From a virus (Duplodnaviria; Caudoviricetes): 64,000 bases of DNA. The stretch is taken from positions 1 through 64,000 of IMG/VR virus record IMGVR_UViG_3300013947_000026. One strand, 5' to 3'. A program made the position numbers and the translations under genes. Shown piece by piece: positions 56,687 through 59,153 of the stretch (position 1 is the stretch's first letter; every line of letters starts with the position of its first letter). Under the pieces are notes generated by a model, which saw only the letters and a program-made list of their open reading frames with translations, had not been told where the DNA came from and did not search any database.

Positions 56687-56981
56687 AAGAAAACTTCTTA
56701 CCCCTTATCTTAGAGACAATATTTCCTTCAAAATAGACAATATCACCATCTGTTACTTTAGTAGAATCACCATGATGAACACATGCGCATATATTACCTT
56801 CATCACTATAACTATCCCAGATAGTCATATGCATTTTGTTTGGCAAATAAATACGCAAGAATCCACCCTTCTGTAAGGAGATTCGTTTAGTCAGCTTCTT
56901 TGCCAACCACTTGTGCAATAGAGGAGACATTACTGCACCTCCCAGCACACCAAGCAGGCATCCTATTACTACATCAATCAT
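56667..56981 (-). CDS. Hypothetical membrane-anchored protein
   Basis: Hydrophobic N-terminus VVIGCLLGVLGGAVM; overlaps both neighbours. Confidence 0.65.
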   Translation of the reverse strand: MIDVVIGCLLGVLGGAVMSPLLHKWLAKKLTKRISLQKGGFLRIYLPNKMHMTIWDSYSDEGNICACVHHGDSTKVTDGDIVYFEGNIVSKIRGKKFSYDRQEW

Positions 56982-57945
56982 ATTTCTGTAACGTTTTTGT
57001 TAACCAGTCTTTCATGGTGCTAAATCCGTTGTCACGAACAGCATCTGATAGATCTTTGGCTTTGAATTTCTTGTTAATGAAAAATGCATCTAATTTGTAC
57101 TGTTTGCTATACATCCTTGACTTATGAACACCCGTAATATCTCTATCGTATAATATAACAATATGTTTCCATTTTGAACGTAAAGATTTAAGTATATCAT
57201 CAGGAATGAATACTGTTTCGCTGGCTGCAGCTATAGCATTAAAACCCATTTCGTAACATACCATAACATCTTTCAATGATTTGGTTATTATGAGTAAATT
57301 GCCACCCTCTTTAGGTAATTCGGCTAATCCCTGTACATGCCTATTTGTCAGATTGGTACGCCATTTAGTATACTTAGAGGCAAGCGGCCGATAAATTTTA
57401 AATTTATCATACACTTTATATGCATACATAGGACTAGTTTCTTTATAGATACTTCGGACGATACTATTACAAAGAAAGTACTTAATGCTAAATACATTGA
57501 ATTTCTTCAATGTATCTATATGAATACCGAACTGTTTCCAGTATTGTTTATCTACATCTGTAAACGGTTGTCGAACTATCCCGATATCAGTTTCTCCTTT
57601 CGGTTTATCATACGTATTTGTCCTAACAGTTAAATTAGGATTTATTCTGCGTACAATTCTCAATAATTCTCGTTCTAATTCTTCTCTTGTCGTTATTCCT
57701 TTATATTCTTTTAGGAACTTTATTGCGTTTCCATAATCACCAGTTCCAAGATCTTTCCATAACAATCCGCCTGTTTTAGATTGGAATATTCCAAATGATG
57801 GATTCTTATCTCCAGATCTTAATGGGCTATTTATAAGTTTTCCAACTTTGAATTGCCCTAAACAATACGTATAGATGTCTAAATCAGTCAACTTGTCCAA
57901 TATGTCTCTTAACGAAACTGTTATTGCTGTCTTAGTACTATACAT
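56974..57945 (-). CDS. dnaG: DNA primase (crAss-type, TOPRIM)
   Basis: SPLRSGDKNPSF..WKDLG, IITKSLKDVM, LYDRD, KDLSD. Confidence 0.85.
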   Translation of the reverse strand: MYSTKTAITVSLRDILDKLTDLDIYTYCLGQFKVGKLINSPLRSGDKNPSFGIFQSKTGGLLWKDLGTGDYGNAIKFLKEYKGITTREELERELLRIVRRINPNLTVRTNTYDKPKGETDIGIVRQPFTDVDKQYWKQFGIHIDTLKKFNVFSIKYFLCNSIVRSIYKETSPMYAYKVYDKFKIYRPLASKYTKWRTNLTNRHVQGLAELPKEGGNLLIITKSLKDVMVCYEMGFNAIAAASETVFIPDDILKSLRSKWKHIVILYDRDITGVHKSRMYSKQYKLDAFFINKKFKAKDLSDAVRDNGFSTMKDWLTKTLQKYD

Positions 57946-57959
57946 AACTTATAAGTTAG

Positions 57960-58036
57960 AGTGAGAGGAAGGAGTCGGACCTTCGTATACATATAATGTA
58001 TAAAACTGCCAAGTGTTACTTTCAGACTTCTCTCAC
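57960..58036 (-). ncRNA. tRNA-like RNA with non-canonical D/anticodon region
   Basis: Acceptor GTGAGAG/CTCTCAC, T-arm GAAGG-TCCGACT-CCTTC, hairpin TATAC-ATTATAT-GTATA. Confidence 0.6.
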
Positions 58037-58044
58037 ATATAAAA

Positions 58045-58104
58045 GAGCAGTTTAATGACATGCTCAGGTCAAACGGGCAGACAGTTTACGGGCTTGTCTA
58101 GGCC
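58045..58104 (-). ncRNA. Two tandem H-type pseudoknots
   Basis: GGC-CT-AGACA-A-GCC-CGTAAAC-TGTCT and TGAC-CT-GAGCA-T-GTCA-TTAAAC-TGCTC. Confidence 0.6.
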
Positions 58105-58249
58105 GGGGACTTCATTTATACATCCCAGATCCAACTTAAGTATGGTTCACCATGAAATCTGATTGCTCTAAGTGAATAGAGCGTGTTACTAAGTGAGACC
58201 TATCCTCACGGACCGGAGTTTTCTACATATAAATGATAAACAAAAACAG

Positions 58250-58352
58250 TGGCTATGCTAGGAATCGAACCTAGCAGAATGGGAAAAATGTACGAAAATA
58301 ACAAAAGATAAAAACCATTCTTGTCTTATGCCTCACGACACCCTGACTAGCC
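58250..58352 (-). ncRNA. tRNA-like cloverleaf with a 32-nt U-rich loop
   Basis: GGCTA/TAGCC closing stem, GUGA-capped arm, AGAATGG/CCATTCT arm, T-arm GCTAGG-TTCGATT-CCTAGC. Confidence 0.65.
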
Positions 58353-58550
58353 TTGTTGGAGGCATTTCACCTCCAAAGGGTAACTGAATTACCTAGCTCC
58401 ACCAACGTCAGTTTATGGCGGTATTACCCTCCCTGACGTAACCACTTGTCATACAGTTTGACACTCCTGCTATGTAAATGATATAAAAACCATTTACCGG
58501 ATTTCATACAATCAAGTAGTATTTCTTTCTCTTTAGATGTATATTCTCCC

Positions 58551-59153
58551 TTAAAACGGAAGCTCTGATACACCTGAATTATTCCCAGTTTCCGGAGTAA
58601 TGGTTGGTGGTACCTTAAGCGGGTCGTTGTGCTCTACATCAGCTACAACTGGACGCTCCATAAGATCTTTCTTAAAGAGTTTAATCTGGGAATCTTTATT
58701 AGACATATCTTCAACGAAGATACCATAAGAACTTACACGAGTGTAACCTTTCTTATCGTAATTAACTTTCAAACGAAGTTTCTTCTTAGTAGCGATCATA
58801 GGATCAAGCATCTGCTTAACCCAATTAATCATTTCTTTAAATGTTTGCAGTTCTGCTTCTGGACGTTGTGGATAATAACAATCAATAATCTGGCATATAC
58901 GTCCAAACTGATTATTATCTGCTCGTTGTAAATCTTCATCAGTTTTAATATATTGACCTTTATTATTCTTCCACTCTGTCATAGTAGCAGTTTGACCTTG
59001 CTCGTTCTCAAATGTAATTTCAAGCTTATCAAAACCTTGTGGTGATACACTGCATATCACTTCCTTGAGAGTTACATTTTCGTTAATACCTACTGGCATA
59101 TAATTGCCAGAAAATTCTTCGTTATTTGTTACGGCTGTCTTTGTACTAAACAT
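58551..59153 (-). CDS. Putative single-stranded DNA-binding protein
   Basis: Beta-rich 200-aa protein ending ELPF; directly follows the Sak4-like ATPase. Confidence 0.7.
   Translation of the reverse strand: MFSTKTAVTNNEEFSGNYMPVGINENVTLKEVICSVSPQGFDKLEITFENEQGQTATMTEWKNNKGQYIKTDEDLQRADNNQFGRICQIIDCYYPQRPEAELQTFKEMINWVKQMLDPMIATKKKLRLKVNYDKKGYTRVSSYGIFVEDMSNKDSQIKLFKKDLMERPVVADVEHNDPLKVPPTITPETGNNSGVSELPF

Follow-up and report, generated by a model that had tools for sequence, protein, structure and literature searches.

A tandem pair of predicted pseudoknots in the tRNA island of a crAss-like phage belongs to a widespread, uncatalogued phage and prophage family

Introduction

Three short elements upstream of the primase gene of a crAss-like phage were described in an earlier note, from the letters alone, as pseudoknots that share one grammar but differ in their stems, and antitoxin mimicry or nuclease blocking was suggested as their role. 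This raises the question of whether the three are one kind of element, whether they are found outside this phage, and what such a knot could do between two genes. The DNA analysed here, the window, is a stretch of 64,000 nt out of a phage record of 102,882 bases. It comes from a crAss-like phage of the genus Burzaovirus, family Suoliviridae, with approximately 83% identity to cr7_1 and cr124_1. The crAss-like phages dominate the human gut virome.

Results

Genomic context

The knots are encoded by the minus strand, within a gap of 605 nt (57946-58550) that separates a gene for an SSB-like protein of 200 aa (58551-59153, minus strand), whose relatives end in an acidic DDLPF tail, from the primase gene (56974-57945, minus strand). 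All relevant elements of the gap read on the minus strand. From 5' to 3' they are the hairpin called PK1, the box UGGUGGAG with two hairpins, and tRNA-like element 1, followed by an RNA of approximately 205 nt with PK2 and PK3 at its end, an 8-nt U-rich spacer, tRNA-like element 2, and the primase start. The corresponding gap of relatives serves as a variable slot for tRNAs, occupied by Val-GAC, Leu-UAA, Gln, Lys, Trp, and other tRNAs, or by look-alikes. ARAGORN made zero tRNA or tmRNA calls in the window. Elsewhere in the phage genome it called tRNA-Lys(UUU) and tRNA-Met, as well as a circularly permuted tmRNA in two pieces, whose acceptor has G3-U70 and whose tag is unrecognised (C1 74087-74458, minus strand, outside the window). 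A perfect palindrome, AACTTATAAGTT (57946-57957, minus strand), abuts the primase ATG and is kept in nearly all relatives. The same PK2-PK3 pair was also observed in a Burzaovirus-like contig of 101,041 nt (L120, JAJXAL010000002.1) binned in a Segatella copri MAG, which is a weak hint at S. copri as the host.

Structure and covariation of PK2 and PK3

PK2 (58104-58079, minus strand) is predicted to fold as an H-type pseudoknot, GGC-CU-AGACA-A-GCC-CGUAAAC-UGUCU. Its first stem, S1, joins GGC (58104-58102) with GCC (58093-58091), the second, S2, joins AGACA (58099-58095) with UGUCU (58083-58079), and the loops are CU (L1), A (L2), and CGUAAAC (L3, 58090-58084). PK3 (58071-58045, minus strand), with the layout (U)GAC-CU-GAGCA-U-GUC(A)-(A)UUAAAC-UGCUC, consists correspondingly of S1 (U)GAC/GUC(A), S2 GAGCA/UGCUC, L1 CU, L2 U, and L3 (A)UUAAAC. 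The two lie about 8 nt apart in non-coding sequence, separated by the linker GCCCGUU (58072-58078, minus strand), which is replaced by a 16-nt hairpin, UACGU-CCGUCA-ACGUA, in most relatives. They are identical at 18 of 26 positions and repeat with a period of 34 nt in this phage, against 33-42 nt in relatives. No conserved small ORF was found over PK2 and PK3; the mini-ORFs present there vary between variants.

The genome was searched with a strict descriptor comprising an S1 of 3-5 bp, a 2-nt loop, an S2 of 5-7 bp, 0-2 nt, S1', 0-2 nt plus TAAAC, and S2'. On both strands of the whole 102.9-kb genome it gave five matches, against a mean of 2.25 in Markov shuffles, and the shuffle mean fell to 0.39 when loop 1 had to be YT. 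Two of the five are PK2 and PK3, which are adjacent and non-coding. The other three matches are AT-rich; the two that were examined both lie inside ORFs, and the third is on the plus strand near genome base 101808, outside the window.

Relatives were sampled as 80 loci upstream of primase homologues. Both knots were present in every close relative (primase identity of at least approximately 89%). The stems of PK2 occur as GGC/AGACA, GAG/UAGCA, GAC/GGAUA, and GAC/GAAUA, plus one version with a G-U pair, around CU and CGUAAAC, which are fixed throughout (CGUAAAC in seven of seven variants). All 80 cells of the ungapped alignment A4 pair, with six of the eight pairs changed on both sides; none of 500 shuffles reached this, and slid controls paired at 26-42%. 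Since S1 and S2 of PK2 are both supported at once, a true pseudoknot is indicated. The stems of PK3 are invariant within the Burzaovirus clade, and its L3 is (A/G)UUAAAC or AUAAAAC in orthologues. AAACU is invariant in the orthologues of both knots.

The PK1 hairpin

The third element, PK1 (58444-58405, minus strand), has a long stem in which ACGUCA (58439-58434) pairs with UGACGU (58410-58405) over 6-7 bp around a 23-nt interior. This stem, proposed as S2, does covary, with four of the six pairs doubly changed; the versions ACGUCA, ACGCCC, ACACCC, AUACCC, and ACACCU were found, each with a matching partner. The putative S1, UGG (58444-58442) with CCA (58418-58416), on the other hand, never varies, and the minimum-energy fold is nested (-14.1 kcal/mol, z = -0.76), so that of the proposed TGG/ACGTCA stems the longer one stands and the shorter one gains no support. 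Loop 1 is UU here and AU in most relatives, and UAAAC is seen only in this window, the relatives having UGAAA, UAAAA, UGAAG, UGAAC, or UGAAU. PK1 also departs from the layout of the wider family described below, in L1 (UU/AU), in the length of S2 (6-7 bp), and in a 15-nt insert between S2 and S1'. With loop 1 and UAAAC not conserved and S1 invariant, the "same grammar" is true of two elements, not three; stems that vary and still pair around a constant YT and TAAAC are found in PK2 and, through its family, in PK3. PK1 is a covarying hairpin ahead of the UGGUGGAG box, outside the PK2/PK3 family.

Other readings of PK1 were considered and set aside. By inspection, the stem order does not fit an HDV-like (theta) ribozyme, in which P3 would have to abut P1. 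A UGGUGG box-CYGCCA helix inside PK1 is possible on paper, but sterically incompatible with the covarying S2. As to a PK1-type knot kept in distant relatives, about one third of the boxes there have no upstream partner, and the existing partners lie in SSB C-terminal codons.

Other elements of the tRNA island

The box UGGUGGAG (58397-58404, minus strand; GGUCAGUGGUGGAGG in more distant relatives) was found once in the non-coding sequence of this genome, and the hairpins after it extend to about 58356. In all fetched phage relatives it heads the SSB-primase tRNA slot, with two hairpins downstream, one of them covarying, and it usually stands a few nucleotides ahead of a tRNA or a minihelix-like tRNA mimic. 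The box is complementary to CUCCACCA, the typical 3' end of tmRNA and tRNA-Ala.

tRNA-like element 1 (58250-58352, minus strand) is built from the acceptor GGCUA/UAGCC, a T arm that contains GGUUCGAUUCC, and an arm of 7 bp with a U-rich loop of 31 nt; its slot holds a genuine tRNA-Leu(UAA) in a distant relative. tRNA-like element 2 (57961-58036, minus strand), which likewise received no ARAGORN call, has the acceptor GUGAGAG/CUCUCAC and the T arm GAAGG-UCCGACU-CCUUC, and relatives carry real tRNAs, e.g., Val-GAC, or other look-alikes in its place. Both look-alikes combine good acceptor and T arms with aberrant middles: element 1 has the long U-rich loop, and in element 2 the D region is oversized and the variable loop is 1 nt long. 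The same slots in relatives also hold mimics, including acceptor-plus-T-arm minihelices. The two were not taken for parts of a tmRNA, as their acceptor and T-arm pairs make self-contained cloverleaf mimics and not two tmRNA ends, and ARAGORN found nothing in the window.

Flanked by the two look-alikes is a putative clade-specific structured non-coding RNA of approximately 205 nt (58045-58249, minus strand), the 3' end of which is formed by PK2 and PK3. Alignment A2 and its consensus fold gave further covarying helices in this RNA. One of them changes from CCA...UGG to CGC...GCG in relatives, around a UUAA or GUAA loop; a GUGA-capped hairpin and the conserved blocks AUCAGAUUUCAU and AAGUCC were also observed. 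Searches with nhmmer recovered the RNA only in Burzaovirus-like loci, with none in distant relatives or elsewhere in the genome. PK3 is followed by the 8-nt U-rich spacer UUUUAUAU (58037-58044, minus strand), which leads to tRNA-like element 2. In relatives with real tRNAs the spacer after the knot is 5 nt, AUUUU, whichever tRNA follows.

The wider pseudoknot family

The PK3 segment gave short matches of 91-97% identity to unrelated Lactobacillus phages, and public collections were therefore scanned. The first pattern, GACCTGNNNANGTCNNTAAACTNNNC, fixes S1 and AAACU and leaves S2 partly free. Stretches carrying it numbered at least 120 from bacteria or archaea and at least 117 from viruses; among the matches listed, the three free positions of S2 are complementary in 209 of 243, where the chance estimate is about 5%. 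Because S1 was fixed by this pattern and thus untestable with it, a second scan was run with S2 fixed and S1 free (CTGAGCA-N6-TAAACTGCTC). Here S1 was complementary in 125 of 127 unique matches, in at least 14 stem versions, against 1 of 127 in slid controls.

The family layout is S1(3 bp)-CU-S2(5 bp)-N-S1'-NNUAAAC-S2', 26 nt in all, with the consensus NNC-CU-GRRYA-W-GNN-NN-UAAAC-URYYC. PK2 and PK3 have exactly this layout, i.e., a 3-bp S1, a 2-nt L1 (CU), a 5-bp S2, and a 1-nt L2, and PK3 is a canonical member. G-U pairs are frequent in the stems, which makes the structure specific to the gene strand. The position table showed no conserved flank around the motif among the matches listed. Record titles of the listed matches name lactic acid bacteria, clostridia, cyanobacteria, actinobacteria, Akkermansia, and Bacteroidota, and further many CPR lineages, alpha-, gamma-, delta-, and epsilon-proteobacteria, Chloroflexi, and two archaeal-labelled MAGs. 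Among these matches the motif is mostly single-copy and at gene ends; tandem copies recur in other genomes (e.g., loci L105, L137, and L320). One member (L325) comes from Lactobacillus phage phiEF-1.1 (MF041990.1, 22282-22311), where it has a small ORF on one side and the genes for the scaffolding and major capsid proteins on the other; this phage has been cultured and is a practical system for experiments on the knot.

No relevant match was returned by Rfam 15 at E values up to 10, for this region and for 16 other motif loci. RNase P RNA, SRP RNA, riboswitches, and known ribozymes were discarded as candidates, having no Rfam match, and so was the preQ1-I riboswitch, whose stems come in the same order but whose L2 and L3 differ, and for which Rfam gave no match either. 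The literature was searched by topic and by sequence string; no description of the motif was found, and the strings gave unrelated primers only. As judged from the sequences, PK2 and PK3 are tandem members of a widespread and uncatalogued pseudoknot family of phages and prophages.

Placement at gene and tRNA boundaries

The ORFs flanking the family motif are co-oriented with it. Among the matches listed, an ORF ends within 60 nt upstream in 148 of 298 unique instances, and the distance from the stop codon to the knot peaks sharply at 6 nt (47 of the 148), with 7 nt in 18 instances and 5 nt in 7. A distance under 5 nt occurred in a single case, a 2-nt overlap with the stop codon. Correspondingly, the position table has a TAA signal at -9 to -7. 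The distance from the knot to the next start codon varies widely. On its 3' side the motif is flanked by U-rich sequence, with at least 6 T out of 9 in 63 of 200 members against 5 of 200 upstream, and this flank is less structured than the 5' one. In 6 of 207 motif windows a same-strand tRNA begins 2-5 nt past the knot, the same arrangement as in the Burzaovirus relatives with the 5-nt spacer. In the pair studied here, 8 nt separate the end of PK3 from the tRNA-like element, and in relatives tRNA-Val follows after 5 nt; no ORF lies ahead of the knots in this window.

Discussion

Possible function of the knots

The fold, the conservation, the strand, and the placement of the knots can be read from the sequences compared, and from these we infer a function. 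The reading that we tentatively put first, giving it somewhat less than an even chance, is that PK2, PK3, and their family serve as protein-free boundary roadblocks or end caps. PK2 and PK3 would be transcribed from the minus strand within the replication-module transcript and would close the 3' end of the clade-specific RNA of about 205 nt, the knot acting as a mechanical boundary without protein. Host RNase P would cut where the downstream tRNA or tRNA-like element begins. The upstream RNA would then be left with the knot and a tail of 5-8 nt, judged too short for the grip of a 3' exonuclease, and in this way the knot would cap and delimit it. In the commoner context, 6 nt past a stop codon, the knot would be placed just outside the terminating ribosome, as close as allowed, and the U-rich unstructured stretch after a gene-end knot would be open to endonucleases.

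Some observations do not sit well with a cap. Coremin-type knots, the nearest likeness discussed below, are known to block from the 5' side, not from the 3' side, so by analogy the downstream RNA would be the protected one. Capping also leaves the extreme conservation of CU and UAAAC without an explanation, because an ordinary hairpin would be enough for a 3' cap. Furthermore, the argument from ribosome spacing does not apply here, since no ORF precedes the knots in the window.

The main rival, which we regard as rather unlikely, holds that the knots are directional 5' to 3' roadblocks like coremin and other exonuclease-resistant RNAs (xrRNAs). An enzyme travelling down the RNA, be it RNase J, RNase E that scans from a 5' end, a post-termination ribosome, or Rho, would be halted at the tandem knots, and the downstream tRNA-like element and primase message would be protected or insulated. 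The signature shared with coremin (a 3-bp stem, 3 nt, AAACU, and an A-U pair equivalent to A7-U19) speaks for such a role, and coremin itself blocks Xrn1 and scanning ribosomes and stimulates frameshifting. The literature also has a flaviviral xrRNA stopping the bacterial RNase J1, and tandem duplication is typical of xrRNAs. At 6 nt after stop codons, the family knots also have the placement that frameshift and readthrough knots take when they stand at the ribosome entrance. Against this, the second hairpin that coremin requires for exonuclease resistance is no commoner behind the phage knots than in shuffles (22 of 200 members against 25 of 200), the distance to the next start codon varies widely, and the 5' ends of tRNAs are made by RNase P anyway. 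The nuclease blocking suggested earlier is in this respect a live reading by analogy, as the 3-bp stem plus NNUAAACU is shared with the Xrn1-resistant coremin.

A leaky terminator or pause site, in which the S2 helix, reinforced by the knot and trailed by a U-run, would terminate or stall some transcripts at unit boundaries, is improbable and disfavoured. A U-rich tract directly follows S2' in about one third of the members, here (UUUUAUAU) as well as in relatives (AUUUUU), and a site just past stop codons is typical of terminators; many members, however, have no U-run. An intrinsic terminator would be expected to combine a U-tract with a G+C-rich stem of 5 bp or longer whose loop measures 3-8 nt. 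PK3 does have a U-run behind it, yet S2 is a weak stem of 5 bp with a loop of 11 nt, and a scan for intrinsic terminators found 0 sites in 57900-58620. The tRNAs that start 2-8 nt after the knot are too close to it for a promoter to fit in between, which requires that transcription continue past the knot.

A decoy or binding site, either a mimic of a type III antitoxin or a target that a phage or host protein (e.g., a nuclease, SSB, or primase) would hold by the constant CU and UAAAC loops, is the least probable reading and a very improbable one: the A-rich conserved loops, the free stems, and a spacing of 34-42 nt near the lengths of ToxI-type repeats would suit it, but there are only two units, 18/26 identical and variably spaced, the downstream neighbours are the tRNA-like element and the primase gene, with no toxin gene next to the knots, and the family is mostly single-copy at gene ends in hosts that include CPR, cyanobacteria, actinobacteria, and archaeal-labelled MAGs, which argues for a universal target and not for one toxin family. 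The antitoxin mimicry of the earlier note is not upheld, since a mostly single-copy motif in many phyla is unlike a decoy for one host toxin.

What this window adds is the context of a crAss-like tRNA island with tandem knots at the 3' end of a clade-specific 205-nt RNA, together with the family statistics, namely the covariation of S1, the 6-nt spacing from stop codons, the missing hp2 of coremin, and the U-rich flank. The 26-nt fold spans phages and prophages of Firmicutes, Bacteroidota, cyanobacteria, actinobacteria, CPR, proteobacteria, and more, with loops kept almost to the base and a placement precise to the single nucleotide, and it is a motif absent from Rfam and with no describing paper found. 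If the knot is truly a roadblock or end cap, it would amount to a general rule of phage RNA organisation and would offer a host-independent, ready-made part for stabilising or insulating RNA. It would also help to explain how a long crAss-like transcript of genes, tRNAs, look-alikes, and the 205-nt non-coding RNA is cut into stable pieces. The widest form of this proposal, possible but in our view rather doubtful, is that the 26-nt knot is the counterpart in the bacterial world of the viral exonuclease-resistant RNAs, of one fold shared with coremin. It would be a universal, protein-free RNA "stop sign" employed by phages across nearly all bacterial phyla, fixing the ends of RNA pieces and fencing terminating ribosomes, with the tandem pair and the tRNA look-alikes punctuating the crAss-like replication transcript.

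Comparison with known systems

The 3' ends of MALAT1 and MEN-beta consist of a triple-helix ENE followed by the tRNA-like mascRNA, which is cut by RNase P. The phage locus is alike in that a compact tertiary structure rich in A stands directly ahead of a tRNA-like element, and in both an RNase P cut would make the 3' end of the upstream non-coding RNA, a processing that for the phage we only infer. The MALAT1 and MEN-beta elements are, however, eukaryotic and nuclear, and they are built from a U-A-U triple helix with a genomic A tract, not from an H-type pseudoknot.

Type III antitoxins (ToxI, AntiQ, CptI, and TenpI) and the phage pseudo-ToxI are made of head-to-tail pseudoknot units of about 35 nt with A-rich single strands, and antitoxin repeats are near-identical, evenly spaced, and situated beside a toxin gene. 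Small head-to-tail units with A-rich single-stranded segments are common to both systems. In place of an array of near-identical repeats at a fixed 34-45 nt, however, the phage has two diverged units (18/26 identical) with a variable period of 33-42 nt and no toxin, and its family is mostly single-copy.

The H-type pseudoknots of luteovirus and MuLV type, which act in frameshifting and readthrough, are spaced 5-8 nt from the A-site codon. They share with the phage knots the compact S1 and S2, the short L1, and the A-rich L3, and their spacing matches the 6 nt after stop codons in the family. They differ in that the phage family has no slippery site and no extended frame, and that no ORF lies ahead of the knots here.

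The closest known motif, as far as sequences can be compared, is coremin (xrRNA-C) of plant RNA viruses. Coremin and its Watson-Crick variant, xrRNA-WCC, occur in beny-, cucumo-, and other RNA viruses and form a protein-independent roadblock to Xrn1 and ribosomes; coremin also stops scanning ribosomes and stimulates frameshifting (Dilweg et al., 2019, PMC6546385; Dilweg et al., 2023, PMC10520033, PMC10321173). Downstream of the coremin sequence, GUCCGAAGACGUUAAACUAC, comes a second hairpin, hp2 (Dilweg et al., 2019, PMC6546385; Dilweg et al., 2023), which is needed for Xrn1 resistance and not for frameshift stimulation (Dilweg et al., 2023). Within the coremin sequence A16-A20 (AACUA) are essential, the two preceding U's are tolerant, and the loop must be YGAD or YGNNAD (Dilweg et al.); in the Watson-Crick variant the loop pairs with spacer nucleotides 18-20 (Dilweg et al., 2023).

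When coremin, GUC-CGAA-GAC-GUUAAACUAC, is set beside the phage motif, GAC-[CUGRRYAW]-GUC-NNUAAACU, both have a 3-bp G/C-closed stem, then three variable or tolerant nucleotides, then AAACU. AAACU invariance is seen in the PK2 and PK3 orthologues, and in the wider family it is fixed by the search pattern. In both, the loop of hairpin 1 pairs with the nucleotides after AAAC, giving a small H-type pseudoknot, and the phage motif has an A-U pair equivalent to coremin A7-U19. The counterpart of the coremin spacer GUUAAACUAC, NNUAAACU, is likewise 3 nt from the stem; the bases that come next pair with the loop, whereas coremin reads AC there. Both loops begin with Y and end with A-D; seen against the coremin loop rule, the phage knot has a 3-bp stem and an 8-nt loop, CUGRRYAW, with Y first, A-D last, and G third, not second. 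The tolerance of coremin for a change of UU to AA has its parallel in the U-to-A change in some PK3 orthologues. Both motifs are tiny, and the phage one, by its sequence, would like coremin require no protein.

The differences are in the pairing as well as in the setting. The phage S2 has five Watson-Crick pairs where coremin has 0-3, and the phage loop 1 is CU where coremin has a single base. The phage knots stand after stop codons and before tRNAs, coremin stands in 3' UTRs, and the phage motif belongs to dsDNA phages of bacteria, which are not known to have Xrn1. As for hp2, a hairpin of at least 4 bp within 6 nt of the knot was present in 22 of 200 family members against 25 of 200 shuffles, and in this window there is none after PK2, where most relatives carry one. 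In a Ktedonospora genome (L146:289-317, plus strand) a canonical knot is followed by GUC-(11 nt)-GAC-GUUAAACUACCC with the exact coremin spacer GUUAAACUAC, and a tRNA-Met lies 35 nt downstream of the canonical knot. Although one defining feature, hp2, is missing, the family looks like a coremin-type knot, and its sequences suggest that it is best described as a new variant of that type.
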